64,000 nucleotides of DNA from Escherichia phage OliverMaurmann_Bas86. Below are positions 1 to 36,446 of this stretch, piece by piece. Numbering within the stretch: position 1 is the stretch's first letter; every line of letters begins with the position of its first letter. The notes below the pieces were generated by a model. The model ran no database searches, was not told the origin of the DNA, and worked only from the letters and a program-made list of their open reading frames with translations. A program made the translations under genes and the position numbers. Where the stretch lies: sequence record PQ850622.1; one strand, written 5' to 3'.

Positions 1-1542
1 ATGTCATTAGATAAAGAGATTTACGAAGCTCTAACTGGAGATAAATTGAGTGTAGAGGAAAAGAAAGCTTTGCTCAATATGTTAAAAGAAAGGGACCAGT
101 GGAGAAAATATAATAAGATGTTAGCTTTTAAAGCTTACGATTTTCAGAAGAAATTCTATGCAGCAGGGTTGAAGCATCGCTTTCGATTCCTGTGCGCAGC
201 TAACCGTGTTGGTAAATCATACAGCGAGGCATACGAGTTTGCTTGTCATGTCACAGGTCGCTATCCAACTTGGTGGACAGGTTACAGATTTAATCGACCC
301 ATATTGGCTTGGGCGGTAGGGATTACAGGGGACTCTACAAGAAAGGTATTGCAAAAGGAATTGTTTGGAACACCTATCGGAAAGGATATGAATCTAATAG
401 GAACAGGTGTTATTCCTCGTGATGCTATCGTATTGGACACGATAGAACGAGATGGGAACAAATTACAGATTGTACAGATCAAGCATCAAAACGCGAGAGG
501 CGAGTTTGACGGTTTAAGTACACTGGAGTTCCGTTCTACCCAACAGGGTGAACATACATTGATGGGTGCTACGGTTGATTACATTTGGCTGGACGAAGAA
601 GATCCATACGAATCTATGGCAATCTTCTCTCAGTGTGTAACACGTACACTTACAACTAAAGGTTTAGTTACTATTACAGCTACACCAGAAAACGGTTTAA
701 CAGAGCTGGTGGATAAGTTTATGAAAGGTGAAGGAGACGAGAACACAGGTTCTCTGTATTTCCAGAACGCTTCTTGGTGGGATGCTCACGTAGATTTAGG
801 TGGACACATCACTGACCAAGATATTAAAGATATGACTGAAGGTATTCCAGCATGGCAGTTAGAGATGCGTTCAAAAGGTATGCCGTTGCTTGGTTCTGGT
901 TTAATTTATGATGTATCAGATGACATGGTTAAGTGCGATCCTTTCGAAATACCTGATACGTGGAAACGTGTTTGTGCTATTGATATTGGTATTGATCACC
1001 CGACCGCTGCTGTTTGGACAGCATATGATGCTAACACTGATACGATTTATGTTTATGACTGCTATAAAGAAGGTGGGTTTACTCCAGTGTATCATGCACC
1101 AGCTATTAATGGTCGTGGTCAGTGGATTCCAGTTATTCTTCCTCATGATGCCGATAACATTGAGAAGGGAAGTGGTTCATCTGTTGCTCAATTCTACAAG
1201 AATGCAGGAGTTAACGTACAGAGTGAGACCTTCTACAACAAGATTGGAATGGATGGTAAGAAGAACTTCTTTGTAGAGCCGGGAATTACTGATATTCGTG
1301 AACGTATGATGTCAGGTCGTTTCAAAATCTTTAACATTGCTTCGTGTGCTAAGCTCTTTGAAGAGAAAGCTCGCTATCACCGTAAGGTTGGCAAGATTGT
1401 TAAGGAACATGATGACTTGATGGATGCTATGCGATATTCAGCTTGTTCTGTAACACATCGTGGACGTAGTAAGCATGATGCTAGTTATGGTAGTTCATCG
1501 CTTTATCAAGACAATATTAACAGATGGAATCAGACCTACTAA
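1..1542 (+). CDS. terL: Terminase large subunit
   Basis: 513 aa; Walker A-like LCAANRVGKS near N-terminus; immediately upstream of portal-sized gene. ORF begins at window position 1, so the true 5' end may lie upstream. Confidence 0.8.
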   Translation: MSLDKEIYEALTGDKLSVEEKKALLNMLKERDQWRKYNKMLAFKAYDFQKKFYAAGLKHRFRFLCAANRVGKSYSEAYEFACHVTGRYPTWWTGYRFNRPILAWAVGITGDSTRKVLQKELFGTPIGKDMNLIGTGVIPRDAIVLDTIERDGNKLQIVQIKHQNARGEFDGLSTLEFRSTQQGEHTLMGATVDYIWLDEEDPYESMAIFSQCVTRTLTTKGLVTITATPENGLTELVDKFMKGEGDENTGSLYFQNASWWDAHVDLGGHITDQDIKDMTEGIPAWQLEMRSKGMPLLGSGLIYDVSDDMVKCDPFEIPDTWKRVCAIDIGIDHPTAAVWTAYDANTDTIYVYDCYKEGGFTPVYHAPAINGRGQWIPVILPHDADNIEKGSGSSVAQFYKNAGVNVQSETFYNKIGMDGKKNFFVEPGITDIRERMMSGRFKIFNIASCAKLFEEKARYHRKVGKIVKEHDDLMDAMRYSACSVTHRGRSKHDASYGSSSLYQDNINRWNQTY

Positions 1543-1548
1543 AAATAG

Positions 1549-1569
1549 GGGAGGCTTTGTCCTCCCTTT
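1549..1569 (+). terminator. Hairpin (GGGAGG / CCTCCC, 6-nt loop) followed by TTT; possible attenuator between terL and portal
   Basis: Inverted repeat read directly in sequence just after terL stop. Confidence 0.35.
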
Positions 1570-1607
1570 AGTAGTTCCTTCCAAGCTATCACCGAGGGAG
1601 AGATTAG

Positions 1608-3851
1608 ATGGCTAAGAAGAAATTTAGTGAAGATGTTTTGGATGAATTACGCGTTGACCTTCAACGTCGATTCAACTATGCTCAAGGTTATGTAGACTTA
1701 GCTGTAAAAGGCTATGCTCGTGAAGCTTGGGAATACTTCTACGGGAACCTTCCTGCTCCAGTTACTGCTGGTAGCTCTAGTTGGGTAGACCGTACGGTAT
1801 GGGAATCAGTGAATGGTACGCTCCAAGATATCATTAACGTGTTCTGTTCTGGTGACGAAGCGGTAACTTTCGTAGCCGATAACCAAGAAGATAGTGATGC
1901 TGCTGATGTAGCCACTAAACTTGTCAATCAAATTTTGTTACGTGATAATCCGGGATACAATATTATCTCTTCAGCGGCACAAGAGTGTCTGGTTACACGT
2001 AACTCTTTTATTAAATACTATTGGGATGAACAGACTTCTACTCAAACAGAAGAAGCAGAGGGTGTTCCTCCGGAAGCTTTGGCTGCATATGTCCAAGGTT
2101 TAGAAGCTGGTGGGCTTCAAGATTTAGAAATTTTTACCACTGACAATGAAGATGGTACAGTGGACGTTAAAGTAACTTACAAACAAACAGTAAAACGTGT
2201 TAAAGTAGAATATGTTCCTTCAGAGCAGATATTTGTTGATGAACATGCTACCTCTTTTGCAGATGCTCAGTATTTCTGTCATCGCACACGTAAATCTAAA
2301 GAAGATTTGGTTGCTATGGGCTTCCCTAAAGATGAAATCGAAGCTTTTAACGACTGGACTGACACAATGGACACCACTCAGTCTACTGTTGCATGGTCAC
2401 GTACTGACTGGAGACAGGACACTGATGCTGATATCGGTGTTGATACTGATGATATTGCAAGTATGGTATGGGTTTATGAACACTATATCCGTACTGGTGT
2501 ACTTGATAAGAATAAAGAATCAAAACTCTACCAAGTCATTCAAGCAGGTGAGCATATTCTCTCTTGTGAGGAAGTAACTAGTATTCCTTTTGTAACTTTC
2601 TGCCCTTATCCTATTCCGGGTTCATTCTACGGACAGTCGGTTTATGATATTACTAAAGATATTCAGGATTTACGTACCGCTTTGGTCCGTGGTTACATTG
2701 ATAACGTAAATAACGCTAACTATGGTCGATACAAGGCGCTTGTAGGCGCGTATGACCGTCGTTCTTTGCTAGACAACCGTCCGGGTGGTGTAGTAGAAAT
2801 GGAGCGTCAGGATGCGATTGATCTCTTCCCATACCACAATTTACCTCAAGGTATCGATGGCTTGCTGGGAATGTCTGATGAGTTGAAAGAAACTCGTACT
2901 GGTGTTACTAAACTCGGTATGGGTATTAACCCTGATGTGTTTAAGAATGACAACGCGTATGCAACCGTTGGGTTGATGATGAATGCTGCTCAGAACCGTC
3001 TCCGTATGGTCTGTCGTAACATTGCTCACAACGGTATGGTTGAATTGATGCGTGGTATTTATAATTTAGTCCGAGAAAATGGTGAAGTTCCTTTACAGGT
3101 ACAAACCCCTCGTGGTATGGTTCAGGTTCACCCTAAACAATTACCTGCTCGTCATAACTTAGAAGTAGTTGTAGCCATCTCTCCTAGCGAGAAGTCAGAA
3201 CGTGCACAGAAACTCATTAGCCTGAAGCAATTGATTGCTGCTGATGCTCAGTTAGCACCTCTGTTTACTCTGGAACAGGATCGTTATATGACTGCACAGA
3301 TCTTCGAGTTGATGGGAATTAAAGATACTCACAAATACTTGATGCCTCTGGAACAGTATCAACCTCCAGAACCTTCTCCGATGGAAATCCTCCAGCTTGA
3401 GATGACTAAAGCACAGGTTGAGAACGTACAGGCTTCTTCTCAGAAGATGATTGCTGATGCATTCGACCAGCGTGAACGCACTACGTTTGAACAGCAGAAA
3501 GCTGCGGACGAGTTTAGCTTACGTCAAGAAGAACTGCAATTTAAGCAAGAGAATGCTGCTGATCAGATGACTCTGGAGAATCGTAAAGAAGATAACAGTG
3601 CTACACTTGAACAAGCTAAGCATAAGTTGGCTTTACTCCAGCAACAGGTCCGTCAGTATGAATCTGTACTTAAAGAATTGCAGATGACTCTTAATCATCA
3701 GGTCGATGTTGAGAAAGTTGCAAATCAGGCTAAAATTCAAGATAAGACTTTGGAACTCCAAAAGAAAGAAGCAAATGAAACTAAGAAAGAACAGCAAAGT
3801 TCAATCAAAGATTCACGGATTCCTAACCGTCGTCTTGGTAGTAGAAAATAA
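1608..3851 (+). CDS. Portal protein (putative)
   Basis: 747 aa ORF directly after terL and before scaffold/capsid; C-terminal Q/E/K-rich coiled-coil tail. Assignment by gene order and size. Confidence 0.65.
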   Translation: MAKKKFSEDVLDELRVDLQRRFNYAQGYVDLAVKGYAREAWEYFYGNLPAPVTAGSSSWVDRTVWESVNGTLQDIINVFCSGDEAVTFVADNQEDSDAADVATKLVNQILLRDNPGYNIISSAAQECLVTRNSFIKYYWDEQTSTQTEEAEGVPPEALAAYVQGLEAGGLQDLEIFTTDNEDGTVDVKVTYKQTVKRVKVEYVPSEQIFVDEHATSFADAQYFCHRTRKSKEDLVAMGFPKDEIEAFNDWTDTMDTTQSTVAWSRTDWRQDTDADIGVDTDDIASMVWVYEHYIRTGVLDKNKESKLYQVIQAGEHILSCEEVTSIPFVTFCPYPIPGSFYGQSVYDITKDIQDLRTALVRGYIDNVNNANYGRYKALVGAYDRRSLLDNRPGGVVEMERQDAIDLFPYHNLPQGIDGLLGMSDELKETRTGVTKLGMGINPDVFKNDNAYATVGLMMNAAQNRLRMVCRNIAHNGMVELMRGIYNLVRENGEVPLQVQTPRGMVQVHPKQLPARHNLEVVVAISPSEKSERAQKLISLKQLIAADAQLAPLFTLEQDRYMTAQIFELMGIKDTHKYLMPLEQYQPPEPSPMEILQLEMTKAQVENVQASSQKMIADAFDQRERTTFEQQKAADEFSLRQEELQFKQENAADQMTLENRKEDNSATLEQAKHKLALLQQQVRQYESVLKELQMTLNHQVDVEKVANQAKIQDKTLELQKKEANETKKEQQSSIKDSRIPNRRLGSRK

Positions 3852-3860
3852 GGATACTGA

Positions 3861-4097
3861 ATGAATACAAGACAGCAATTCAATAAAGAGCACGCCGCCG
3901 CTTTGGCGGCTCTCAATCACAACGGCATTCTTGACGCAGCATTAGAGGCATTGAAAGAAACCCTCATGAAAGATATCGTACTAACCGAGGCTCATGAGAA
4001 TAAGAAACGCGAAGAGTGTTATCAAAAGTATAAAATGGTTGGTAGCTTAAAAGAGGTCATAAAAGCTGCTATCAATAATGCAGGAGATAATTCCTAA
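3861..4097 (+). CDS. Small hypothetical head-module protein
   Basis: 78 aa ORF with RBS, between portal and scaffold. Confidence 0.4.
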   Translation: MNTRQQFNKEHAAALAALNHNGILDAALEALKETLMKDIVLTEAHENKKREECYQKYKMVGSLKEVIKAAINNAGDNS

Positions 4098-5179
4098 TGG
4101 CAAATGATTATATTGACCCGAACGATTTTAAATCTTTCCTCCAACTAGACGACTTAAAAGGTTCCTTCAAAGAAGAGCTTAGTCAATTAGAATCAGAACG
4201 TGAACCAGAAGTGAACATTGATGATGAATTCCCAGAACAGTCTGAGACTTTTGATCTTGATGCTTCCGACCTTCTCGGTGATGACGATACGTTAGCGTTC
4301 GAAGATGAAGATGGTTGGGAAGATCGTGAAGAGGAAGGCGAAGAAGAAGAGGAAGAGTCTGAGTTCTCTGATGAAGAAGATGAAGAAGATGATTCCGGTG
4401 AAGCAGGTCACGATGAAGCTGCTAACAGTGATGAAGATGGCGAAGAAGGCGAAGTCTTTGACGTAGATTACGAAACTGTTATCACCCTTCCTGATGGTCG
4501 TGAGATGACTATTGAAGAGTTGTCTAATGGCTATCTGACTGGTGCAGAAATGTCCGAACGTGAGACTACTTTGCAGCGTCATGTTGAAGCTTTTGAAGAA
4601 CGTGTTTCTGGTTTGGGTGATGTATTAGAACTAGCTGCCCTAGAAGCAGACCGAGTAATTGAAGATTACAACGGTTTTGATTGGGACAAACTCGCACAAG
4701 AAGATCCTCAAGCTTATGTAGAAAACAAACGTTTCTTAGAAAAGTATACAGCTCGTCGCCAACAGCTTGAACAAGCTCAGCTTAAAATCAAGCAGGAAGC
4801 ACAAGCAAAAGAACAACAGCTCTTCCAAGCTAAATGTACCGAATGTGTAAGCGTACTTAAACGTGAGATTCCTAATTGGGATGACAACTTGTATCAGAAC
4901 CTGATGCAGTATGCAATCGACTTAGGTGCTACAGAAGAAGAAGTGCTGAAAGAGAACCGTCCGTCAATTTTCCTAGCTCTGCACAAAGCATACCAATTTG
5001 ATAAAGGTAAGCAGCAAGTGATGGCTAAGATTAAACGTCCCGGCTCTCCACGCAAGGTTGTGAAGTCCGATGCTTCTAAGTCTCGTTCTTCCAATACGCC
5101 AGACAACGCTAAGGTTGCCAAGGCATTCTCAGAGGGTCGCATTCGTCACGAAGACGCATTTAAGTATCTCGTAGATTAA
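4097..5179 (+). CDS. Scaffolding protein (putative)
   Basis: 360 aa, strongly acidic (long E/D runs), helical/coiled-coil C-terminal half, immediately upstream of major capsid gene. Confidence 0.6.
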   Translation: MANDYIDPNDFKSFLQLDDLKGSFKEELSQLESEREPEVNIDDEFPEQSETFDLDASDLLGDDDTLAFEDEDGWEDREEEGEEEEEESEFSDEEDEEDDSGEAGHDEAANSDEDGEEGEVFDVDYETVITLPDGREMTIEELSNGYLTGAEMSERETTLQRHVEAFEERVSGLGDVLELAALEADRVIEDYNGFDWDKLAQEDPQAYVENKRFLEKYTARRQQLEQAQLKIKQEAQAKEQQLFQAKCTECVSVLKREIPNWDDNLYQNLMQYAIDLGATEEEVLKENRPSIFLALHKAYQFDKGKQQVMAKIKRPGSPRKVVKSDASKSRSSNTPDNAKVAKAFSEGRIRHEDAFKYLVD

Positions 5180-25092: not shown

Positions 25093-28000
25093 ATGGCTAA
25101 TTTAAAATCGTGGGAAGAAGCTTCCAAAGCTCCTGCGTATCTGAATGCCTCTCCAGAGCAACAGGCTCAAATGAGAGAACAATACAAGGCAGCAGGGGGC
25201 ACTATTCCTGAGACTCAACCACAAGAGCAACCACAACAAGAAGAACGAGGTGTTATTGGGGAGTTTGCTCAAGGTGTGTCTAACGCTCTTCAATCAGGTG
25301 GTGCTAACATTGCAGCTAGTGCTGCTAAAGGTTTAGGTGGGCTGGTAGAGATTGGTGAAAACCTAACTGGTTCGGAAACAAGCTATGGTAAGCGCATTCA
25401 AGAGAACTCTAAGCAATTGCTGGAAGAACGCTTATCCAAGATAGAAGATGGTTTTGGTAAAACAGCTGGTCAGTATGCTGGTGTTGCTGCTGATATTGGT
25501 TTGACAGTTGCAAACCCTGCTGTTGCTGCTGCTGTTATCGCAGCTCGTGAAACAGGTCGTGCTTATGCTGATCAAACTCCTAAAGAAGATGAAGATAAGT
25601 CAATCTTAGATGCTGCTCTTGTTGGTGGTGCTAACTACGCTGCTCAGAAGATACTTCCGGGCATGACTGGTACAGCTTCTACTACTCTAGGTCGTGTAGG
25701 ACAAAGCGTAGCCTCTAACGCGGTTGCTGGTGCTAAGGGTGGTGCTATTGTTGGTGCTGCTGAAGCTCAGAACAAATATGGAGATGATACTACTCTAGCT
25801 AATGTCTTAGAAGGGGCTATTGAAGAAGGTGCACTCGGTGCCGCTTATGGTGGGGCGATTGGTGGGGTTCATGGGTTAATAAGTCGTCCTAGTCCTCAAG
25901 TGTTTGATCGTACTCCTGAGCATGTTAAGACTGACATTGCTGCTGAAGATGAGGCTATTCGTAAAGCTGCTAACGCTGATGAACTTCGTGAAGCCTATGC
26001 TAAAGCTGAGAATGCTAATGCTGCCTCTGCTTTAAACCTTCTGGATGAAAATGGTTTCCGAATCACAGATGCAGTTGCTATGGACTCTCCTGCTGTTCAA
26101 CGTATATTAAATACAGATCAAAATCGTGCAGAGAAGGCTGCTACGGTTCAGAAAGATAGTTCTAACGTTCCCGGTCTTAATCCTTTAGCTTCTCCTAAGA
26201 AGACTCAAGGTAAAGCTTTTGCTGACAATGAGTACAACCAGAAACAAGCTGTGGCAATGAAAGATGCAATGGCTGACTACACTAAAGATAACACCAAAGC
26301 CCTTACTGATGTTCTAGACAATCTAGACCGAGAGTTAGTAGCTCTGAGAGCAAGTGGTGATTTTACTGGTAGTGCTATTGACATTAAAAACCGTACTCAA
26401 GCTGATCGTGATTTTATTGATGCTTATAAAACTTTTTACAGTGAAGCTAATCGTTTCAAAGCTCGTGATGGTGAAGACCTAAACAACTTCATTGATAAAG
26501 CTACTCAGTTGCAGAAGCTCTCTGAAAATGTTTCTCCAGAAATGAAGAAGGCCATTGGTGGATTAAAGAAACTAAAAGGTATGCCTGAAGGTTTTAACCC
26601 TATCCAAGATGCTTTCACTCTGAATAATACAGCTAAGTTCATGAGTAACCAAGACCGTGGTTGGACCTCTCTGACTGATGACGGTTTTCGTGAAGCTCCG
26701 GCTCCTGTGTTAGTTAAGAATCCTCTCGGTGCAGCCAAGTATGTACTTAACCGCTTTACTTCCGATCGTGCTCGTGCTCAACGTGAGAAGCAACAGTCAG
26801 CTAATAGCGAAGCTATCCGCTCTTTGGCTAGGGCTGATTTAGAAGTACAACGAGCTAGGACTCAGGCTGAAGAAGCAAGAGCAAAAATGGAAGAAGAACC
26901 AACCACAGAAGACATCAAATTCCGTACTCAAAATGATGCACCTTCCGAACCGGTTCGTGAGGAGCCTTCTGCTACTACTGTGACAGAAGAAATTCCTTCC
27001 TCTCCAGCTCCAACTGAAACACCTCTTACTGCGAGGGATCTAGTTGCTCAAAGACGTGCTCTCCAACAAGCAGAGCTTAGACGTCAAGAAACTGAAGCTG
27101 CTCAGGCTCAAGAAAGTGCTACACCAGAACCTGAACCACAGCAAGAAGCTCTTACAGCTAGAGAATTAGTAGCTCAGCGTAGGGCTGTAGCAGAGGCTAA
27201 GAAACGTCAAGAGGCAGAGGAAGCAGAACGTGCTAAAGAAGCTCCTGAGGAGGCCGTAGAAGAGCCTAAAGAGAAACCTGAGCCATTACCTGCTCGTGCT
27301 CCTAAAGCTCCTGAGAAGGCTCCTGAGCCTGTTAAACCATCACTCGGTGTAGAGCGTCTGGCTTCTATGTCAACTGCTGCCCGTCAGGCAACAAAAGATC
27401 GTGCTGACCGATTTGCTCGTTCTTTGTATTCGGCTGCTGCTAAAGCTAAAGCTACTGCGGAAAACTTCCTTTCTTATAAAGGAGACCCTAAAGAGCTTAT
27501 GCGTCGTATCCGTCAGGAAGACCAAGCAAACAACACACAGCGTCATGAAGAGATGGCTAGAAATCAACTGGCTTCCCAGCAAGGCATTGCTTCTGCTAAA
27601 TCTCAACATGTTCGTGCCTCTTTTGCTGATTGGGTAAAAGAACGTGGGTTGCCTTCTGATATCGCTACTAAAGCCTTACGGGCTGAAGAGAAAGGTTTAG
27701 GTGGGAACGTCACAAGCCTAGATTCACTGAAACGAAGAGCTGAACGTTTATATCAGAAACAGAGAGATGATGAATTTGACCGTCTCTATCGAGAGGCTCT
27801 GGAAGAGAATAAAGCGTTTGACAAGAAAGATGCTCCTAAACTGGTAGATCAGAAGAAAGAACTTCAGGATGAAATTGGTACACTGCTTGATGCAGAACCT
27901 TTACGTCCTGCTCAGAAAGATGCTATGCGTAAGATCATGGAAGACTTTGTGGAGAGTAAGTTTAAATCTTCAGAGAAAGCTGGAAGGGTTGAGGCTTTGG

Positions 28001-29538
28001 AAGTTGGTCAAATGAAGGATGTGTGGGATGGGTTTATTAATACCTATAACCGAGAAGTTAACATGTTCAACAAGGCTAACAAGAACTCTCAATACGAAGC
28101 AGCGGCTAAACACTTGCAAGCACGTCAAGAACGTCTTGAGACGCTCCGTAACAGAGCTAAGGCTCGTAATGATGCCAAGGCAGCTATGGAAGCTGAAAAG
28201 CAGTCATTGGAAGCTATAGCGGCTCAGAAATCCGAGATGGAGAAGATGTTCAAAGAGTTGCCTGAAAGTGTCAGAGAAGCTCAGGAAGGTCGTACTTTGA
28301 AACAGCTTGCTGCTCACCACGATAAAAACTCTCCAGTACCACCAGAGCGTTTCCGTAGTATTATTGAACGTATTCACAACGCTGAGAGTGATTACCTCGA
28401 TCGCAAACGTCGTTTGACCGAAGCAGAGGAAGATGCTCGTGAGGCTAAGTGGAATAGGATGTATGAACAGGCTGAGGAAATGAACCGTAGGTTTGATATT
28501 GATTCTAGAGTGAAGAGAGACAAGGCTCTGAAAGAAGCTCAGGAACGAGAGAATGACCTAATGGCAGTTCAACGTCAACGTGATGACATTCATAAACGTT
28601 TAGTCAACACTCTGGAAGAGAAGGGGGTTTCTAGAGAGGATGCTGAAGCGTATGCTGGTTCTTATATGGACAATCGGTATGCTTTGTTAGAGAAACCTAT
28701 GACTCCAGTGGAACATCAGAATGCTCGTGCTCGTATCGAATCTGACGTAGAGAAGTTTGTTAAGAAGTATGAAACAGCTACTCCAATCGAAAGAGAGATT
28801 GCTAAGGCAACTGGTGATGCAGATGGGAAAGCTTCTGACCTTGATGCAGAAACAGCAAAAGCTATCGAAGATGCTCGTAAAGTTGATTCTGATTTTAAGA
28901 AACTTTTAGATGAAGAGAAAGAAATGGAGAAGATTCGTTCGGCTCTACCTGAGGATGAAAGATCTCAGGCTAACTCTGATATTCTTGAAAGTATTAAGAA
29001 GCAGGAAGATGACTTTGCTAACAAAGCAGAGAAAGCTTTTATTGAAGGGAAAGACTTGCAGGAGTTGGCGAGTGTTGCAGAGGTTCTAGATAGGGTTCAT
29101 GGTGCAGATAAGGCTGGTAACAACCGTCGATTTGTACGTGCTCTACAGACTGCTGCTGAGAACAAGAAACGTTATGGAGATAATCCAGTGGCTTGGTTTA
29201 GTGCTGATGATTATTCTGCTATTGCGAAACTTGGTGCTGCTTCGGCAGGTGGTAACAAATCTCGAGCACTTGAGAAAATCTTTGGTTCTACAGCAGAACA
29301 AGCTAAAGGGAAACTTTTAGGGAGGGATGATGTAGCTAAGATTAGACGTGTGATTGAAGCGAATCCTAATGCTAAGATTCCTTCTTACAAGACAACTACT
29401 CGACAAGAGTATTTACAGTTCTTGGAGAAGTATAATGATGAGGGAGAGTTGAAAGTCAAACGTGGTTCTCTGTCTGACAAGTTAGAAAGGGGTAAGCGTC
29501 AAGCTAAACTTCGTGTTAGAGTTCGAGCTAAGGAGTAA
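25093..29538 (+). CDS. Large internal virion/ejection protein (putative)
   Basis: 1481 aa; Gly/Ala-rich N-terminal region, long E/K/A/R-rich coiled-coil middle; last gene of + strand block. Confidence 0.5.
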   Translation: MANLKSWEEASKAPAYLNASPEQQAQMREQYKAAGGTIPETQPQEQPQQEERGVIGEFAQGVSNALQSGGANIAASAAKGLGGLVEIGENLTGSETSYGKRIQENSKQLLEERLSKIEDGFGKTAGQYAGVAADIGLTVANPAVAAAVIAARETGRAYADQTPKEDEDKSILDAALVGGANYAAQKILPGMTGTASTTLGRVGQSVASNAVAGAKGGAIVGAAEAQNKYGDDTTLANVLEGAIEEGALGAAYGGAIGGVHGLISRPSPQVFDRTPEHVKTDIAAEDEAIRKAANADELREAYAKAENANAASALNLLDENGFRITDAVAMDSPAVQRILNTDQNRAEKAATVQKDSSNVPGLNPLASPKKTQGKAFADNEYNQKQAVAMKDAMADYTKDNTKALTDVLDNLDRELVALRASGDFTGSAIDIKNRTQADRDFIDAYKTFYSEANRFKARDGEDLNNFIDKATQLQKLSENVSPEMKKAIGGLKKLKGMPEGFNPIQDAFTLNNTAKFMSNQDRGWTSLTDDGFREAPAPVLVKNPLGAAKYVLNRFTSDRARAQREKQQSANSEAIRSLARADLEVQRARTQAEEARAKMEEEPTTEDIKFRTQNDAPSEPVREEPSATTVTEEIPSSPAPTETPLTARDLVAQRRALQQAELRRQETEAAQAQESATPEPEPQQEALTARELVAQRRAVAEAKKRQEAEEAERAKEAPEEAVEEPKEKPEPLPARAPKAPEKAPEPVKPSLGVERLASMSTAARQATKDRADRFARSLYSAAAKAKATAENFLSYKGDPKELMRRIRQEDQANNTQRHEEMARNQLASQQGIASAKSQHVRASFADWVKERGLPSDIATKALRAEEKGLGGNVTSLDSLKRRAERLYQKQRDDEFDRLYREALEENKAFDKKDAPKLVDQKKELQDEIGTLLDAEPLRPAQKDAMRKIMEDFVESKFKSSEKAGRVEALEVGQMKDVWDGFINTYNREVNMFNKANKNSQYEAAAKHLQARQERLETLRNRAKARNDAKAAMEAEKQSLEAIAAQKSEMEKMFKELPESVREAQEGRTLKQLAAHHDKNSPVPPERFRSIIERIHNAESDYLDRKRRLTEAEEDAREAKWNRMYEQAEEMNRRFDIDSRVKRDKALKEAQERENDLMAVQRQRDDIHKRLVNTLEEKGVSREDAEAYAGSYMDNRYALLEKPMTPVEHQNARARIESDVEKFVKKYETATPIEREIAKATGDADGKASDLDAETAKAIEDARKVDSDFKKLLDEEKEMEKIRSALPEDERSQANSDILESIKKQEDDFANKAEKAFIEGKDLQELASVAEVLDRVHGADKAGNNRRFVRALQTAAENKKRYGDNPVAWFSADDYSAIAKLGAASAGGNKSRALEKIFGSTAEQAKGKLLGRDDVAKIRRVIEANPNAKIPSYKTTTRQEYLQFLEKYNDEGELKVKRGSLSDKLERGKRQAKLRVRVRAKE

Positions 29539-29584: not shown

Positions 29585-29635
29585 TAGATGTTAGAATCCA
29601 TCGAATTCATCATACATCCCAATTTTCTTCTTCAA

Positions 29636-29902
29636 TCACAAGACCTCCCAATCATCTGCAAACAAATCACCCTGAGATGGAACCCATCCGGGTTGCATAA
29701 TACCCTGAGCATTCTTTAAGTCTAAATGAGGGGCGATGACGAATCGACCAGTGATGCCAGCTTTTTCATAATCAGAACCCGGTCGAGCTTCTTCTACTTC
29801 ATATCCACCTTCTTTGATGATGAACTGATTTGCACCATTCCAACCAGAGCGAGCAATCCTCTTCCCTTCTTTTACTTTAATAAGCGCTGAACTGAAATCC
29901 AT
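29636..29902 (-). CDS. DUF2829-like small protein (possible Tad2-type anti-defense sponge)
   Basis: 88 aa; N-terminal FSSALIKVKEGKRIARSGWNG and C-terminal DWEVL resemble the family as recalled from memory. Confidence 0.4.
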   Translation of the reverse strand: MDFSSALIKVKEGKRIARSGWNGANQFIIKEGGYEVEEARPGSDYEKAGITGRFVIAPHLDLKNAQGIMQPGWVPSQGDLFADDWEVL

Positions 29903-29910
29903 TTGTTCTC

Positions 29911-30213
29911 CTAGATTAAATCGTAATACTTAATAATATCAGAGAGCTTAAACTCTCGAATGTCATTCTTATCATTGTCCCAAGCGGTCATTATCCAACA
30001 AGGTTTGCCCCCATTATGATAACGGGAAGAAGCAACTGAGGTTCGTAAAGGAATAACGGAGCGGTCTGCAATCTCGCCTCTCCAATTACGATAGCTAAAG
30101 CGAAGAACTTGTTTCGTAGATACTTGATCATGTGTGTTTTCCTTGTTCATAGATTCAAAGATTTCCCTTTCTTCAGGAGTCTCTAGATTTTTTAAATTCG
30201 CGTCTTGCATCAT
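29911..30213 (-). CDS. Hypothetical protein
   Basis: 100 aa ORF; no recognised motif. Confidence 0.4.
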   Translation of the reverse strand: MMQDANLKNLETPEEREIFESMNKENTHDQVSTKQVLRFSYRNWRGEIADRSVIPLRTSVASSRYHNGGKPCWIMTAWDNDKNDIREFKLSDIIKYYDLI

Positions 30214-30577
30214 TCTCTTCCTTAGTTTTTATCTTATGGCAAGGCTCTTTGCATAAGACTTGAAAACCATCTTTCTCAACTAAAGCCCTCTCGATGATTT
30301 CATCCCAAGTAGCTTCATGGTCCACTGGGACAATAGGCTCTATATGGTCTACTGCTACGTCTTTAAGAGGAGAATCATTACCACACATAGCACACTTATA
30401 GTGCATTGCCAGTTTGCCAGTTTTAGGGTTGATTTTACGTTCTGTCTGAGCCTCTTTGAGAGAATCAAACATAGGTTTCCATTTCCTAGTCAGAGAACGA
30501 ATCCCTGACTTAATGAAGGAGTTATAACGTGCTTCAGTCCACTGACCAGAGCATCTTGTCTTCTCAGCTTTCGCCAT
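30173..30577 (-). CDS. HNH endonuclease
   Basis: 134 aa; CAMCGN...VDHIEPIVPVDHEATWD...LCKEPCHKIKT. Confidence 0.7.
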   Translation of the reverse strand: MAKAEKTRCSGQWTEARYNSFIKSGIRSLTRKWKPMFDSLKEAQTERKINPKTGKLAMHYKCAMCGNDSPLKDVAVDHIEPIVPVDHEATWDEIIERALVEKDGFQVLCKEPCHKIKTKEENDARREFKKSRDS

Positions 30578-30755
30578 AACCTACATCCATATCAGCGTCT
30601 TCCCAAATGCGTTTATTGACTCGGTGTGATTCTTTATCAGCACGAGGGATACGACCTGTGCGACGATCAAATGCTTGGTGCTTAATCTTTTGATCTTTAC
30701 GAGATTCACGAGTAGAGGAGTTTTCATCATACGAACGATAGTCAAATTTACCCAT
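30564..30755 (-). CDS. Small basic hypothetical protein
   Basis: 63 aa, Arg/Lys-rich. Confidence 0.3.
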   Translation of the reverse strand: MGKFDYRSYDENSSTRESRKDQKIKHQAFDRRTGRIPRADKESHRVNKRIWEDADMDVGYGES

Positions 30756-30768
30756 TATAATATCCTTA

Positions 30769-31587
30769 TTACCAAGTTTTATCTAACCATGACCAATCAA
30801 AGAGGTCACCTTCAGCTTGTCCAACGAAGAGCAATCGAGCATTTTCTAACATCTTAGCTTCTGCTTCTTCCTCGAACCTTTTATAGTATTCCATTCGTAT
30901 AATATGATAAAGAGTCCACTTATCGAATACCTTCTCAATAAGTTTGATTGCAGCCTTACTACCAATGCCTTTACGACGCATTACTAGATTGCCACCCCAC
31001 ATCATTTCAACCTTCTCACCGCATCCGGGAATGTTATCTGTGCTATCCCCGATCAGCATCTGGTAGAAGAAGTTCTGCCATGCTACTTCTTCTGATACAT
31101 AGTGAGGAGGTACTTCTTTCTGTCTCTCCCCGCAAGCCCAACGGTAATGCCATCCGGGAGTGATTAACAAGTCTTTATCACGGGTGCAAATGATAGTGTT
31201 CTTATCACGTCTCTGTCTTTCAGCTAGGGCATCATCCGCCTCTCTCCCAAAAACTTCTACGTATTCGTAATTCTCTTTAATGTAATCACTGACATTTTGC
31301 CAGTGGTGAGGTCTTTCTCCCGGTGGTCGATTAGCTTTATAACCTTGCTGCTTAGCAATATCAAACCGAAAATTACCACCTTCGCTGAAGTAAAAGATTG
31401 TTTTCTCACAACCAGACCTTGCAATGATTACATCTATTTTATGTTGAAGTCGTTCAATCAAGAATCCATAATCAACTGGAACACGACCTGTGTCTAGAAA
31501 AGGATGCTCTTGTGTAAGAGCACCGACTTCATATCGCAGAACATCTGCATCCACAATTGCTACTTCAGGATAGATTACATCAGACAT
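30769..31587 (-). CDS. 5'-3' exonuclease / flap endonuclease
   Basis: H3TH-type motif LIGDSTDNIPG; ORF track begins at TTG 31611, but ATG 31587 (MSDVIYPEVAIVDADVL) has a GGAGAG RBS and is preferred. Confidence 0.8.
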   Translation of the reverse strand: MSDVIYPEVAIVDADVLRYEVGALTQEHPFLDTGRVPVDYGFLIERLQHKIDVIIARSGCEKTIFYFSEGGNFRFDIAKQQGYKANRPPGERPHHWQNVSDYIKENYEYVEVFGREADDALAERQRRDKNTIICTRDKDLLITPGWHYRWACGERQKEVPPHYVSEEVAWQNFFYQMLIGDSTDNIPGCGEKVEMMWGGNLVMRRKGIGSKAAIKLIEKVFDKWTLYHIIRMEYYKRFEEEAEAKMLENARLLFVGQAEGDLFDWSWLDKTW

Positions 31588-32176
31588 AGAGATCTCTCCG
31601 TGTCTCTTCAATAATCCACTCTAAATCATCAACTGCCTCTTCTACAGAACGGTCATTAAAGAGGAGGTAGGTTGGTAGGTTTGTTCCTTCAATATAAGAA
31701 CGGGAGTCCCCTTCAAAGGAGCAGCCATCTCGGAGAATCTGAACTACTCGAACATAGAAGTGTTTCTCTAGTTCTTCAACTTCAGCTTTGAACCCACCAT
31801 CAGAGAAGACGATAACATCATTCTGTGATGGGATACGTTGTTGAATACTGCTAACAGCAAGTTTACCCATGCAGGTCTCACCAAACATAGGTTTCAGATA
31901 ATCCTCACTAGTTGCAATCATCAAGTCTCGAACTGACTTACCGCCCCATTCAGGACGGATATGTTCTTTCCACTCACGGTCGTTGTACAGCTCCATGAAC
32001 TTATAAAGAGGGAGACCTAATGCAGCAGCAGCCACCCGATACATAGGCTCCTTAAAAGCCTTTACATGCGGTCTAAACTCAGTGTTACCAGCGGTCTTCT
32101 CTAACCAAGCATTAGCGATTGTATCTTTACCACAACCCGGAGGTCCATTTAGAATTACTACTAATGGTTTACTCAT
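31580..32176 (-). CDS. P-loop nucleotide kinase (dNMP kinase-like)
   Basis: 198 aa; Walker A VVILNGPPGCGKDT near N-terminus, resembling phage dNMP kinases. Confidence 0.55.
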   Translation of the reverse strand: MSKPLVVILNGPPGCGKDTIANAWLEKTAGNTEFRPHVKAFKEPMYRVAAAALGLPLYKFMELYNDREWKEHIRPEWGGKSVRDLMIATSEDYLKPMFGETCMGKLAVSSIQQRIPSQNDVIVFSDGGFKAEVEELEKHFYVRVVQILRDGCSFEGDSRSYIEGTNLPTYLLFNDRSVEEAVDDLEWIIEETRRDLYV

Positions 32177-32826
32177 TATTGAATCATCCCTTGAAGATCT
32201 TCTTTATCAAAGTGCTTCTCTACTACCGCTTCATACAGATCACGATTCTCCGAATAACGGCGATAGAAGGTTCCGTGTGAAATTCCCAGCTCTTGTTGGA
32301 TGTGATCATGAGGAATACCGAGGAAGAGCATTGAGAACATACTTGCCATCTTGCGGTTTTCCATAATATCACTTAGGTCTTGGAAGAAGAAAAAGATTCT
32401 AGATTCCAAGAATGGGTCTCCAGTAGAATCATGCTTATCCATAGCAATCTCTAAAGGACTTTCCCATGAATTCATCTCGGGAGGTCTAAACATATCAGCC
32501 TCTGGAATAGAATAGATACGTCTGTCTCCAACTGTCTGACGATTAGAACGAATCGACCAGATGATATTCTTCACACGATAAGTCATGTGTTCAATATCTT
32601 TTTCATCGGTAAGCAGTAGTTCTTCTTGCTTTGCAAATACAAAACGCCAAGAGTTCAGTAACACTTCCTGAGCAACATCCTCTGCTTCGTGATAATCTTT
32701 AATGTCGTACATAAAATACTTATGCACAACTTTCCAATTCTCTCGATAGAATTCATCGAAGGTTGGGTAGTACTTAATAGGTATGCCATGAATACGATAG
32801 CGTGTGGGTGTTGTCTTTTTCTTCAT
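32176..32826 (-). CDS. Phage-encoded sigma-70-family sigma factor
   Basis: 216 aa; region-2-like [12 protein letters not shown] and C-terminal HTH-like [16 protein letters not shown]. Confidence 0.7.
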
Positions 32827-32850
32827 AAGTCATCCTTAACTTACTTTACA

Positions 32851-33075
32851 TTAAACTACACAGAATAAATACATTGCTGTTTCAGGGGAAGGTATGTGGT
32901 CACTAGGATATCTAACCCTAATCCACTCATCATCTTCTGCTACATAATAAGCCCAATAAGACCCATTTTCATTAATAAAGAACTTGAAGGTACAACCAAA
33001 GATTTGGTTATTGTGTTCCCATACTGCATGAAACTGAGTAACACCTTCTGGTATTGTAAGTTCCGCTCTGATCAT
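32851..33075 (-). CDS. Hypothetical protein
   Basis: 74 aa ORF. Confidence 0.35.
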   Translation of the reverse strand: MIRAELTIPEGVTQFHAVWEHNNQIFGCTFKFFINENGSYWAYYVAEDDEWIRVRYPSDHIPSPETAMYLFCVV

Positions 33076-33371
33076 TGTATTCCTCTCTCCTTTAGAGCTT
33101 TAAGCAAACCGTTGTGGTTAGCGGCACAGGTTGTATAATTGTCCTGATACCACTCGAGTGTTGTTGCAAGTGCTACTCCCTGTCCACTCTGAAGTAAAGG
33201 GAGGTCTACATCACATTCAGCTTTTAGGTTTGTTGGTAAGGGCATTAGCTGCCTGCTGTTGTCGCTCGTTGAACAAGCCATCAAACTAGAAGCGAGCAAA
33301 ATCACCAAACAACTCTTTTGCTTTTTCTTTGTAAGCATTTTCTGCACCTTCTTGAGTGCTATGATAACCAA
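33072..33371 (-). CDS. Lipoprotein (o-spanin candidate); true start probably the internal Met (MLTKKKQK...)
   Basis: Signal peptide with lipobox L-M-A-C (KKKQKSCLVILLASSLMAC); small mature domain with 3 Cys. Confidence 0.4.
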   Translation of the reverse strand: MVIIALKKVQKMLTKKKQKSCLVILLASSLMACSTSDNSRQLMPLPTNLKAECDVDLPLLQSGQGVALATTLEWYQDNYTTCAANHNGLLKALKERGIQ

Positions 33372-33780
33372 GCCAAATTACTTTGTTTTGATATCCGATA
33401 CGAGCACTCCATTTATTAATATCTGACCTGTATCCTACACCTTTTATTCCAGTTAAAGAGTTCTTTTGAACTATTTTATTGGCATTGTTGAGGACAGGTG
33501 TTGCTTTTCTTAGATTGCTCCAAGAGTTATTAGACTTATCTAAATCTTTATGGTCTATTTGGAAATCGGGAATTTCTCCAGTTTTTATATACCAAGCAAC
33601 TCGGTGAGCTTTGTATGTCTTTCTCTGAAAATTCAATGTTACATAACCAGCTTTTGTTTTACACCCTGCAACCTTTCCTGCGAGTCTTGAGTTCCACTGA
33701 GCGCTCTTATCTTTAGAATGTTTCCAGTACAGAAGACCGGAAGCCTCGTCATAAGACAGATATTTAATTAATTCTTTAAT
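33286..33780 (-). CDS. HNH homing endonuclease (HNH_3 + AP2-like), predicted ATT start
   Basis: ORF track starts at TTG 33636, but the frame stays open upstream and encodes the conserved N-terminal YLSYDEASGLLYW module; only candidate initiator is ATT 33780-33778, 7 nt after GGAGG. Confidence 0.55.
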   Translation of the reverse strand: MKELIKYLSYDEASGLLYWKHSKDKSAQWNSRLAGKVAGCKTKAGYVTLNFQRKTYKAHRVAWYIKTGEIPDFQIDHKDLDKSNNSWSNLRKATPVLNNANKIVQKNSLTGIKGVGYRSDINKWSARIGYQNKVIWLGYHSTQEGAENAYKEKAKELFGDFARF

Positions 33781-34109
33781 TTCAGTGCCTCCGCTGCTTG
33801 TTGTTGTCGTTCATTGAAAAGTCCTACATACTCATCACTAGCACACACATTGTAAAAAACTGGCTTAGTCTTTTCATAATGCATCTCTTTGTAAATAGTT
33901 TCCGTGTTCTTCTTCCAGTTAGATAAACCAGTCAGAACTTTCTGAGCCACTTCATCAGCAGCCTTAGCTCTCTCAACCTCAATCTCTTGCTGTTTCTTCT
34001 CTTGGTCAAGAGCATTACTATCACTTCTGTATTGCTCAAACTTGACACCACCAAAGAAAACCAGAGCTGTGAAGATTAAAAAACCTATATTGTTTTGAAG
34101 CTTTTCCAT
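33768..34109 (-). CDS. Membrane-anchored coiled-coil protein (i-spanin candidate)
   Basis: N-terminal TM segment IGFLIFTALVFFGG then charged coiled coil; ATG 34109 with GGAG RBS preferred over the GTG 34133 of the ORF track, which lies inside a terminator hairpin. Confidence 0.45.
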   Translation of the reverse strand: MEKLQNNIGFLIFTALVFFGGVKFEQYRSDSNALDQEKKQQEIEVERAKAADEVAQKVLTGLSNWKKNTETIYKEMHYEKTKPVFYNVCASDEYVGLFNERQQQAAEALKLKN

Positions 34110-34122
34110 TTTAACTCCAACG

Positions 34123-34145
34123 AAAAAAGCCACCCGAAGGTGGCT
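34123..34145 (-). terminator. Rho-independent terminator after SSB gene (AGCCACC-UUCG-GGUGGCU + U6 on - strand)
   Basis: Read directly; near-identical hairpin recurs at 37031-37054. Confidence 0.6.
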
Positions 34146-34167
34146 AAGCTATTACAAGGAGAGATTC

Positions 34168-34908
34168 TTAGAATGGGCTATCATCTTCTTCAAAGGTTGA
34201 TTGCGGCTCTTCGTTAATGGTAGGAATACTTGGAGTAGCATCTTTCTGTTCAGTGTCAGAAGCTTTAGTAACTTCACGACCAGCCAGAGGGATATTCTTA
34301 GCATCGTTAGCTTGAGTCAAGAGGTTACGTTGGAATGGGAAGATTGCTTGATAAGCAGCTAAGTTAGCGTCAGTCTCAGCATACGGTTCGAAGAAGATCA
34401 ACTCACTACGAGGAGCACCTACCGCGTCACGATATTTAGTCGGGATTGGAGTGATGCTTTTAATGGAGTTTTTCTTCTCACCAGCTTTATTGGTGTAAGA
34501 GTTAACCAGAATGTTAACAGGCTGACCTAACAGCATATCTTTAAACCAACCCAAATCACCTTTCAGTGCTTGAACACTTGGGTCGATCATTTTAATCAGA
34601 TTTAGAATACCAGAGTTCTTAGCTCGTGGGTTTACATCAAAAGATTTAAACTGGCAAGCAGGACGAGGGTCCAGAGGTTTGCCTTCATTATCAGTCCCTG
34701 TTGCATCTACGCCAATCAGCTCAAAAGCTAAGTCCATACGGAAAGCTGGGTTCTTAGGAGTAACTGCTTTGGTTTTAGGGTCAATCCAAGGGTCACGATT
34801 GTGAACACCCAAACCTACAACACGAACAATACGTGCTTCGTACTCACCATCAGGGATTACATCGTAGTTGGATTTACGGGATACAGACAGTTCAGGGATC
34901 ATAGACAT
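34168..34908 (-). CDS. ssb: Single-stranded DNA-binding protein
   Basis: 246 aa; acidic C-terminal tail ending EEDDSPF, like the SSB C-terminal DDDIPF-type interaction tail. Confidence 0.65.
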   Translation of the reverse strand: MSMIPELSVSRKSNYDVIPDGEYEARIVRVVGLGVHNRDPWIDPKTKAVTPKNPAFRMDLAFELIGVDATGTDNEGKPLDPRPACQFKSFDVNPRAKNSGILNLIKMIDPSVQALKGDLGWFKDMLLGQPVNILVNSYTNKAGEKKNSIKSITPIPTKYRDAVGAPRSELIFFEPYAETDANLAAYQAIFPFQRNLLTQANDAKNIPLAGREVTKASDTEQKDATPSIPTINEEPQSTFEEDDSPF

Positions 34909-34967
34909 ATTAATATTTCCTTATATAGATTTAAGATTGTTGCTCTCTTTGAGCGGTTTGTATACTA

Positions 34968-34976
34968 TATACATTA
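34968..34976 (-). promoter_or_regulatory. TAATGTATA motif (on - strand), candidate promoter element for SSB
   Basis: Exact 9-mer in coding orientation ~60 nt upstream of SSB ATG. Confidence 0.35.
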
Positions 34977-35243
34977 CACTTATACAGATAAGGTTCTATT
35001 ATACTATAACCTTTTTGGTAGTAGATAATGACAAGTAGTAATGTATATATGGTATAGCTAGTAAAGCTATTGCAGGCTTGTATATTGGGCAATCATTGTA
35101 ACCCTTGCAAGTACCGAAGGGCAGGAGACACCTGCGAGATAAAAATAGAGAATTAAGGAATCCTTGATTTAGGTTGTGGGGACTCCTAGGGACTTTGATT
35201 CTCTATTAAAATCAAAAGAAAACTTAACTTAAAACAATAACTT

Positions 35244-35882
35244 CTACCATTCTAAAAGACCTTTAAAACTAGTTTGTTCTACTGTTCTCTGATAAGGTAA
35301 GTTAGATTCTGCTTGTTTGCTTAGCATCTCTTGTACTTTATCAGTAATTGGATAATCTTTTTGTAATAAAGAAGCTACCCACTCTTTCCTACTTTCCAGC
35401 TCTTTTCTAATTTCTTGCAGAGACACAGCTCTGTAATCAATTTGTTCCATAGAGGTACAAAAATATCTCCAATCTTTGATAGTAGAATTATGAGTATGAG
35501 CATAGATATTATACTTTCCTCTCATTTCATCAGAGTGAATAGGGATATGAGTTACCCAAAATTCTTTGTATTTATAATCACCACTGATGTGTCTAAAGAC
35601 TTTCATCATATCAGGTAGAAGTTCTAATCTATCATGGTTCCCTAAGACAAGATGTTTCTCTCCCTTTATTTCAGCGATAATATCAAGTGCATACTTCTCA
35701 AACACCCAGTCACCTGTAAAGAAAGTTTTATCACGTTTAGTAACATGATCAAACGCTGCTAAGATAGCTTTATCATGTTCTTCAATACTACTAAACTTCT
35801 TCCTAAAGTTACAGATATTACGATGGCCTAGGTGACCATCACCTGCAAAATAAACTTCAGCCACTTTCGTATGTGTCCTCAT
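35244..35882 (-). CDS. Calcineurin-like metallophosphoesterase
   Basis: 212 aa; motifs GDGHLGH, TGDWV, LGNHD, HTHN. Confidence 0.8.
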   Translation of the reverse strand: MRTHTKVAEVYFAGDGHLGHRNICNFRKKFSSIEEHDKAILAAFDHVTKRDKTFFTGDWVFEKYALDIIAEIKGEKHLVLGNHDRLELLPDMMKVFRHISGDYKYKEFWVTHIPIHSDEMRGKYNIYAHTHNSTIKDWRYFCTSMEQIDYRAVSLQEIRKELESRKEWVASLLQKDYPITDKVQEMLSKQAESNLPYQRTVEQTSFKGLLEW

Positions 35883-36007
35883 AATATGAGTAGTTGAAGG
35901 ATTCAGCTTTCGTTTCAGCCTCCTCCATATCGTCTGTTTCCAGAATCACTCTCCAGCCAGAGCCGTTAGGGTATTCAGCTCCCTCATCTAGCCAGACTTT
36001 GTATCGT

Positions 36008-36211
36008 TTAGATTGTGCAACCATCGCAGATGTAATCTCCACTGAGAGACTCTTGTAGGAGTCGAGATTGCTCATCGGCATACAGAGCATCAATTTCTTC
36101 CTTGAGCTTTGCAAGTTCTACGAAGTTTATCAATTGACCATAATCCGTCGCATCAGTGACGAATTGAAACAAACCTTTACCTTCAGCTTTAATAATATAC
36201 TCTTTAGACAT
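36008..36211 (-). CDS. Hypothetical protein
   Basis: 67 aa ORF. Confidence 0.3.
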   Translation of the reverse strand: MSKEYIIKAEGKGLFQFVTDATDYGQLINFVELAKLKEEIDALYADEQSRLLQESLSGDYICDGCTI

Positions 36212-36435
36212 TATAAGATCTCCCTTTGTTTGCTGTTAATGACTGTCATCGCTGTGACTGGATTGTTTGTTCCAAGATATTCTAGAACAGGGACACCCTT
36301 AGTCGGTTTATCAGCCTCTATGTAATTCTTAACCTTGCCACCAAGAACCGCTAGAGAAGCCTGAGCTTCCGCTTCATCATAATGAATTCGGTCAACTGTT
36401 TTCTTTCCAATCTTATAAGTGTGAACGTAAATCAT
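36211..36435 (-). CDS. Hypothetical protein
   Basis: Start refined to the internal ATG (MIYVHTYKIGKK...) with AAGGA RBS; the longer ORF-track start overlaps the upstream small ORF. Confidence 0.4.
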   Translation of the reverse strand: MIYVHTYKIGKKTVDRIHYDEAEAQASLAVLGGKVKNYIEADKPTKGVPVLEYLGTNNPVTAMTVINSKQREIL

Positions 36436-36446
36436 TTTAATCCTTA

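Follow-up and report, generated by a model that had tools for sequence, protein, structure and literature searches.

A Tad2-family protein and probable Thoeris-signal sponge encoded by a Gordonclarkvirinae coliphage

The founding anti-Thoeris sponge of the Tad2 family is SPO1 Tad2 (Gp34.65; PDB 8SME, 8SMF and 8SMG), which takes up 1''-3' and 1''-2' glycocyclic ADP-ribose (gcADPR). HgmTad2/AcrIIA7 (PDB 8KBI-8KBM) and SptTad2 (PDB 8WJD) are two-pocket sponges for gcADPR and cyclic dinucleotides, and ModTad2 (PDB 8V3E, 9EIB) is a sponge for His-ADP-ribose (His-ADPR; type II Thoeris) and cyclic UMP (cUMP; Pycsar). Across the family the targets are diverse and comprise Thoeris types I, II and IV, cyclic-oligonucleotide-based antiphage signalling (CBASS) and Pycsar (PMC12393519). 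Here a gene of this family, called the tad2-like gene below, is described from a 64,000-nucleotide stretch of Escherichia phage OliverMaurmann_Bas86 (PQ850622.1; the whole stretch is referred to as the window). Its 88-residue product belongs to the Tad2 family and probably acts as a sponge for a Thoeris-type signal.

29636..29902 (stop codon included), minus strand: tad2-like gene (open reading frame list, PF11195, AlphaFold2 model, ratio of nonsynonymous to synonymous substitution rates (dN/dS))

The open reading frame (ORF) starts with the ATG at 29902, which is the earliest start codon past the upstream in-frame stop. The ORF list gives the complete protein as MDFSSALIKVKEGKRIARSGWNGANQFIIKEGGYEVEEARPGSDYEKAGITGRFVIAPHLDLKNAQGIMQPGWVPSQGDLFADDWEVL; it begins with MDFSSALIKVKEGKRIARSGWNGANQ and has GDLFADDWEVL as its C-terminus. 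A preliminary description of this DNA, made from the letters alone, had reported this ORF with its N-terminal motif and DWEVL end, and had suggested that it might encode a DUF2829/Tad2 protein. The ORF list contains the frame and both motifs as described, and a profile search bore out the family call. The match to PF11195 (Tad2-like, formerly DUF2829) is strong and full-length, with a score of 81.7 bits (cut-off 25) and an E-value of 5.6e-23 over residues 1-88 and all 73 profile positions; this far exceeds what a chance ORF would yield. PHROGs 1048 and 872 also match the protein, and function is unassigned in both. In a phmmer search of PDB sequences SptTad2 was the best match (E 4.6e-10), and HgmTad2/AcrIIA7, SPO1 Tad2 and ModTad2 each matched at about 1e-8 (overall range 5e-10 to 2e-8). 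Identity to each solved Tad2 is 32-35%, and the protein is roughly equidistant from all four. PADLOC and NCBIfam scans gave no match, but these libraries hold defence and bacterial naming models and the result is therefore uninformative.

The predicted fold agrees with the sequence matches. An AlphaFold2 model built from 47 homologs had a mean predicted local distance difference test score (pLDDT) of 95.4 and a predicted template modelling score of 0.81. Its topology, alpha1-beta1-beta2-insert(alpha2)-beta3-beta4-alpha3-beta5, is the Tad2 order, with beta1 and beta2 flanking the GWNG loop (helix 3-11, strands 16-18 and 27-31, an insert with strand 34-36, helix 44-47 and strand 54-56, then strands 59-63 and 69-71, helix 77-80 and strand 85-87). 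When the model was compared with the PDB using Foldseek, the best 24 matches were all Tad2 proteins (ModTad2, SptTad2, HgmTad2 and SPO1 Tad2) with template modelling (TM) scores of 0.64-0.79; the 25th match had an E-value of about 1, and no non-Tad2 fold was found below that. Taken together, the full-length profile match, the sequence matches to solved Tad2 proteins and the Tad2-only structural matches make membership of the Tad2/DUF2829 family secure. Conserved residues of alpha1 (F3, A6, K11 and G13) are compatible with a tetramer, although they do not prove one. RefSeq and UniRef already name homologs "DUF2829 domain-containing" or "Thoeris anti-defense 2-like", and in GenBank the close relatives Bas87_0021 and Bas88_0021 are labelled "hypothetical protein". 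What the gene adds is a correct annotation in an established family rather than a novel type of system.

The residues of the ligand pocket were mapped with two independent alignments (MAFFT and hmmalign), which were in agreement. SPO1 Tad2 grips 1''-3' gcADPR via W25, N26, W73 and D79 of two protomers (Yirmiya et al., bioRxiv 2023.05.01.538930), and these residues correspond to W21, N22, W73 and D79 of the tad2-like protein. In HgmTad2, W21, N22 and G23 touch the diphosphate and W87, L88 and D93 the riboses, and both the W21A/N22A and the S90A/T92A/D93A mutants lost binding (Li et al., bioRxiv 2023.11.15.567273). HgmTad2 residues W21, N22, G23, W87, L88, S90 and D93 align with W21, N22, G23, W73, V74, S76 and D79. 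The ribose/diphosphate core (W21, N22, G23, W73, S76 and D79) is invariant when compared with the four solved Tad2 proteins, and the ribose/diphosphate grip is conserved as a whole.

The same core was followed through the wider family, for which clustering at 90% identity yields at least 8,000 clusters and clustering at 50% identity 8,631 representatives (E-values up to 0.001). A five-sequence profile search, dominated by HgmTad2-like Bacteroidales proteins, was replaced by the 50%-clustered one, and 148 representatives were aligned to one profile; this sample over-represents the window's clade, members of which are in the profile. Near-universal residues among the 148 are W21, N22, G23, W73, S76, D79 and W85, and the core positions are kept in 141-148 of them.

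In the reading we favour, the tad2-like protein is likely to be a sponge for an ADP-ribose-type signal derived from a protein with a domain of the Toll/interleukin-1 receptor (TIR) type. The default ligand would be 3' or 2' cyclic ADP-ribose (3'cADPR/2'cADPR, i.e. 1''-3'/1''-2' gcADPR), the signals of type I Thoeris. Four 88-residue copies would form a homotetramer, as in the solved family members, and the ADP-ribose-derived signal would be bound and concealed, undegraded, in inter-dimer pockets where protomers meet. The signal would come from a bacterial TIR-domain sensor of the Thoeris ThsB type; once it was sequestered, the Thoeris effector would stay off and the phage cycle could be completed. 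Thoeris systems are present in E. coli (PMC12922286). Tetramer formation, ligand binding and Thoeris inhibition are thus predicted properties of the protein, and we infer sequestration of a Thoeris signal from family membership and the conserved contacts.

Several points weigh against this functional assignment. When sponges of the Acb2, Tad1 and Tad2 families were assayed together, 19 of 84 inhibited none of seven systems (PMC12393519). ModTad2 fails to inhibit type I Thoeris, and specificity is not predictable from membership. A literature search found no published assay of the tad2-like protein or a close relative, and the BASEL paper, which describes the 95.5%-identical gene of phage Bas87, has no mention of Thoeris; among the defence systems assayed there, these phages were sensitive only to Fun/Z. 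The apparent timing of tad2-like expression, discussed below, is read from a 6-nt motif alone. Finally, three of four HgmTad2 adenine contacts differ in the tad2-like protein (A78→N64, V84→Q70 and T92→G78), and the replacements are fixed in its sub-family.

The adenine side is where the protein departs from its solved relatives. In HgmTad2, T92 makes a hydrogen bond to the adenine, M76, A78 and V84 make hydrophobic contacts and T82 a water-mediated one (bioRxiv 2023.11.15.567273). Here M76 is replaced by L62 and T82 by I68, alongside the three fixed changes named above. The four solved Tad2 proteins have M26, A/T/S64, D/S66 and T/S78, and the combination Q26-N64-Q66-Q70-P71-G78-F81, fixed in the window's clade, is found in none of them. 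Of the 148 representatives, 81 have Thr at position 78, 24 have Ser, 16 have Ala and 10 have Gly. Every sequence with Gly78 also had Gln26, and nearly all had Asn64 and Gln66 too; the Gly78 share of about 7% is an upper estimate because the sample over-represents this clade. The altered sub-site lowers confidence that the specificity is identical to that of known Tad2 proteins, while family membership is unaffected.

It is possible, though on balance doubtful, that the protein has the same fold and sponge action with a re-tuned adenine side, and captures another or an additional TIR signal such as N7-cADPR, cADPR, His-ADPR or one that is yet to be discovered. The clade-fixed residues, three of which (N64, Q70 and G78) fall on HgmTad2 adenine contacts, speak for this. 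Type IV Thoeris, the system that signals through N7-cADPR, occurs naturally in E. coli 328 and is inhibited by neither SPO1 Tad2 nor ModTad2; Tad2_71, which inhibits types I, II and IV, shows that binding of N7-cADPR by a Tad2 can occur (PMC12393519). However, the ribose and diphosphate contacts are unchanged, and as Thr, Ser, Ala and Gly are all found at position 78, small residues may simply be tolerated there.

The sub-family itself bears on the same question. All 75 of the closest homologs (40-94% identity) carry PF11195. Their sources are contigs of phage size (about 40-77 kb) and genomes of Yersinia, Klebsiella, Pectobacterium, Xenorhabdus, Moellerella and Cronobacter, and they have in common an almost unvarying signature, GWNGxxQ plus KNAQGxMQPGWVPSQGDLFAxDW. 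Four members (P0047, P0271, P0297 and P0331) are fusions of Tad2 with Sequestin (PF21825), in both domain orders; the P0047 gene lies between the lysis genes and the terminase of a lambdoid phage. Such fusions put the sub-family firmly among the sponges. Sequestin was found in 10 of 13 members assayed to inhibit type I Thoeris by sequestering 3'cADPR, and to inhibit no other system assayed, and an Acb4-Tad2 fusion, which joins different specificities, blocks two different systems (PMC12265669). By analogy with the latter, the Tad2 and Sequestin halves may be complementary rather than redundant. Capture of a signal other than or besides 3'cADPR, if real, would explain the frequent fusion to the 3'cADPR-specific Sequestin. 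Fusion was detected in 3 of the 10 Gly78 representatives against 3 of the 138 others (Fisher p = 0.004), but this enrichment is biased, as the Sequestin hidden Markov model was built from the sub-family's own fusions. The fusion could also merely raise the capacity for one and the same ligand. A scan of the window found no second Tad2 and no stand-alone Sequestin.

A second pocket of the HgmTad2 type, for cyclic dinucleotides, is absent. The insert between beta2 and beta3 is 27 residues long, whereas 35-41 residues are found in the HgmTad2/SptTad2 type and are said to be required. None of the HgmTad2 residues at which mutations do away with cyclic-dinucleotide binding is kept: R31 and N85 are replaced by E31 and P71, S47 by P41 and F70 by I56. 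This comparison covers the HgmTad2-type pocket. The insert also varies more than any other part of the protein among the copies in the window, Bas87 and Bas88, and about 13 of its residues are deleted in Shigella phage ShigP1 and in homolog P0051. Some Tad2 proteins do bind CBASS or Pycsar signals (cGG and cyclic GMP-AMP in HgmTad2/SptTad2, cUMP in ModTad2), and CBASS is commoner than Thoeris (bioRxiv 2023.11.15.567273). Given the replaced residues and the short, variable insert, capture of such a cyclic mono- or dinucleotide at the intra-dimer pocket is nevertheless an improbable function for the tad2-like protein.

An anti-CRISPR function of the AcrIIA7 type is the least probable of the alternatives, and we give it almost no credence. 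AcrIIA7 is a DUF2829 protein that was first reported as a Cas9 inhibitor, it and the tad2-like protein fall into one Pfam family, and the PDB matches include 8kbi and 9kzr. Against this, to our knowledge E. coli has type I CRISPR systems, not type II-A. HgmTad2/AcrIIA7 moreover showed no inhibition of SpyCas9 in vitro or in vivo (Li et al., bioRxiv 2023.11.15.567273). TadIV-1 was also considered as a possible relative and was set aside as irrelevant, being a structurally distinct T4 protein (PMC13243611).

The distribution of the gene is that of an accessory element. The region is 95-98% identical to the Gordonclarkvirinae (Kuravirus/Suseptimavirus) Escherichia phages PAS59, SU7 and AnnaHegner_Bas87, and the window phage is a Gordonclarkvirinae coliphage. 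These relatives are phiEco32-like podoviruses of the C3 morphotype with genomes of about 77 kb and a sigma factor of the extracytoplasmic function (ECF) type. Among 98 related records that have the surrounding 5 kb, only about 8 contain the tad2-like gene. In tblastn searches its product was 95.5% identical in Bas87, EK010 and E20-1, 83-84% in NC-B, Bas88 and TH43, and 63% in ShigP1. SU7 and 101114UKE3 have nothing in the slot, and when their DNA is aligned with that of the window, Bas87 and Bas88, the difference is a clean indel of about 264 bp.

29644..29913, minus strand: limits of the single-gene indel (DNA alignment of filled and empty sites)

The edges of the indel are a microhomology resembling a ribosome-binding site, GGGAGG at 29644-29649 within the 3' end of the tad2-like gene and TAGGAG at 29908-29913. 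In PAS59 a 167-aa HNH homing endonuclease (2612..3115 of the PAS59 locus) sits exactly in the tad2 slot, and a second one of 171 aa (3992..4507) lies between the 63-aa gene and the exonuclease gene of the same operon. With two extra HNH genes there, the 3' part of the operon looks like a general hotspot for small mobile insertions, and not specifically for counter-defence genes. The idea that the slot is an "anti-defence island" was dropped as not demonstrable, the PAS59 cargo being an HNH homing endonuclease.

Copies with the full signature were found at 68-78% identity in Murrayvirus IME_EC2 and in the Schitoviridae phage TR2, and sub-family homologs at 66-75% identity in enterobacterial genomes and prophages. 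Three unrelated lineages have the gene at the 3' end of a recombination/replication block or not far from it, close to convergent virion genes. This "operon-tail" position recurs in IME_EC2, TR2, ShigP1 and the window. The comparisons describe an accessory single-gene cassette that is passed horizontally among unrelated Enterobacterales phages; it is small, stand-alone, variably present and horizontally spread, as is general for accessory counter-defence genes. It was also considered whether Salmonella phage TR2 has two Tad2 paralogs, and this was rejected: the RefSeq "DUF2829" protein gp90 fails to align to the Tad2 profile. The label "DUF2829 domain-containing" on TR2 gp90 (1520..1903 of the TR2 locus) looks wrong.

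Variable presence also raises the question of whether the gene is a passenger, neutral or in decay, that does not at present serve counter-defence. Close relatives live without it. When 5,426 complete E. coli genomes were searched at DNA level there was no match, which means that E. coli prophages do not harbour it at nucleotide identities of 65-70% and higher. Passenger status is nevertheless very unlikely. The dN/dS among the copies in the window, Bas87 and Bas88 is 0.14-0.16, and of 14 residues that differ between the window and Bas88 proteins, 13 lie outside the stretch 62-86; the single substitution within that core motif among the three copies is M69I. The ribosome-binding site and terminator are intact, and the full signature is kept across three phage lineages. 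The purifying selection shown by the dN/dS also speaks for the sponge reading.

The following features surround the gene.

29908..29911, minus strand: ribosome-binding site GGAG, 5 nt 5' of the tad2-like ATG (read from the sequence)
29911..30213, minus strand: WYL-domain protein, 100 aa (PF13280, 26.7 bits, cut-off 21.8)
30173..30577, minus strand: HNH endonuclease, 134 aa (phrog_3106, E 2e-37)
29610..29639, minus strand: 9-codon ORF with a GTG start (MIEEENWDV), overlapping the tad2-like stop codon
29537..29583, both strands: bidirectional intrinsic terminator, common to the tad2 operon and the convergent 1481-aa gene
25093..29538, plus strand: convergent neighbour, 1481 aa, highly charged, of low complexity and rich in Ala, Glu, Lys and Arg
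32847..32875, minus strand: two tandem AATGTA elements (gp36-type -10-like motif) directly 5' of the sigma-factor gene, a candidate promoter

The plus strand of the window carries virion genes from 1 to 29538, and on the minus strand a block of genes extends from about 62600 to 29636, so that the tad2-like gene is the last gene of that block, as had been noted earlier. About 50 nt past its stop codon the minus-strand operon is closed by the terminator. RNA folding gave -28.8 kcal/mol (z = -4.64) on the minus strand, followed by a U-rich UUUUCUUGUUU tail, and -22.9 kcal/mol (z = -3.35) on the plus strand. The SU7 record has a terminator annotated on both strands at the homologous place.

The preliminary description had placed the gene at the start of the early block. 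The first part of this holds in the sense of coordinates only, since in transcription order the gene is at the distal end, and the second part is not supported, as the nearest phage-type promoter elements point to middle-class expression. In phiEco32, early genes depend on host sigma-70, and middle and late ones on gp36, the sigma factor of the phage, together with an AATGTA element; gp36 itself is made in the middle phase of infection (PMC12276001). From 29600 to 36500 the minus strand has the motif AATGTA only three times, each time in an intergenic region (32847-32852, 32870-32875 and 34970-34975). The tandem pair directly before the sigma gene suggests autoregulated middle-class expression of the sigma factor and the genes downstream of it. 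From the sigma gene as far as the tad2-like gene no convincing terminator was found. The genes for the sigma factor, a deoxynucleoside monophosphate (dNMP) kinase, an exonuclease, a 63-aa protein, the HNH endonuclease, the WYL-like protein and the Tad2-like protein, followed by the terminator, therefore probably form one middle-class operon. A sigma-70 promoter scan was discarded as evidence for timing, with 26 sites against 17.2 +/- 4.1 in shuffled sequences, all of them 9/12 matches. The sigma-70 site before the 63-aa gene was likewise unconvincing, because it ends 1 nt ahead of the ATG of that gene.

The neighbours had been described as small unknown ORFs. This remains true of the 63-aa protein, but the other genes upstream of the tad2-like gene could be identified, namely those for the 100-aa WYL protein, the HNH endonuclease, the exonuclease, the dNMP kinase and the ECF-type sigma factor. 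The ribosome-binding site of the tad2-like gene overlaps the TAG stop codon (29911-29913) of the preceding WYL-like gene, which makes translational coupling of the two genes plausible. The 100-aa WYL protein also matches the PADLOC WYL model (7e-8) and phrog_3715 (2e-22), and a sequence search gave no solved relative. Its gene is kept in all relatives examined, in contrast to the tad2-like gene. A stand-alone phage WYL domain, a ligand-sensing domain, adjoining a sponge gene might be related to counter-defence itself. The WYL-like gene overlaps the HNH gene by 41 nt; in the records of SU7, PAS59 and 101114UKE3 the homologue of the latter is called "terminase small subunit", probably an erroneous label that has been propagated. 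On the other side of the tad2-like gene, the NWDV tail of the 9-codon ORF is joined in frame to the C-terminus of Tad2 in ShigP1 and in the metagenomic homolog P0001, and a remnant of that ORF (MIEE followed by a stop codon) remains in the empty sites of SU7 and UKE3. The 1481-aa convergent gene bears the label "hypothetical" in all relatives.

Gordonclarkvirinae are common E. coli podoviruses that are considered for therapy, and their counter-defence repertoire is essentially undescribed; in the BASEL phage record the 95.5%-identical Bas87 gene is still a "hypothetical protein". The minority of phages with the swappable cassette, set beside relatives with an empty site, constitute a natural experiment, and knowledge of the gene could help to predict host range on clinical strains that carry Thoeris. 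Phage sponges have repeatedly revealed new immune signals. With its altered adenine site and the repeated fusion to Sequestin in its sub-family, the protein is a reasonable candidate for a specificity beyond that of the solved Tad2 structures. If the specificity is indeed re-tuned, the protein might be used as a reagent to capture an immune signal that is new or so far poorly covered.

Among the described sponges, SPO1 Tad2 resembles the tad2-like protein in size (89 vs 88 aa), fold (Foldseek TM 0.64-0.72) and its short beta2-beta3 insert. The four reported ligand contacts are kept, and both are stand-alone accessory phage genes. The two differ in that identity is 34%, the SPO1 host is Bacillus and the phage a myovirus as opposed to an E. 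coli podovirus, and SPO1 M26, T64, D66, H70, A71, T78 and L81 are replaced by Q, N, Q, Q, P, G and F. HgmTad2 and SptTad2 gave the highest TM scores (0.77-0.79), SptTad2 was the best sequence match, and the gcADPR core is identical. Unlike these two, the tad2-like protein lacks the 35-41-residue insertion for cyclic dinucleotides as well as R31, S47, F70 and N85, and its adenine contacts are replaced. ModTad2 is the top Foldseek match (E 6.4e-8, TM 0.75), is of similar length and shares the GWNG and S..D...DW motifs. It is, however, 33% identical, has V77 and S78 ("SVSD") and lacks Q26, N64, Q66, Q70 and P71.

The Tad2-Sequestin fusions (PF11195 + PF21825) are also close to the protein. The Tad2 halves of P0271, P0297, P0331 and P0047 belong to the same sub-family, with 71% identity over the aligned domain for P0271 and 70% for P0047 (BLASTP), and all four carry Q26-N64-Q66-Q70-P71. 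Unlike these fusions, the protein in the window is a stand-alone domain.

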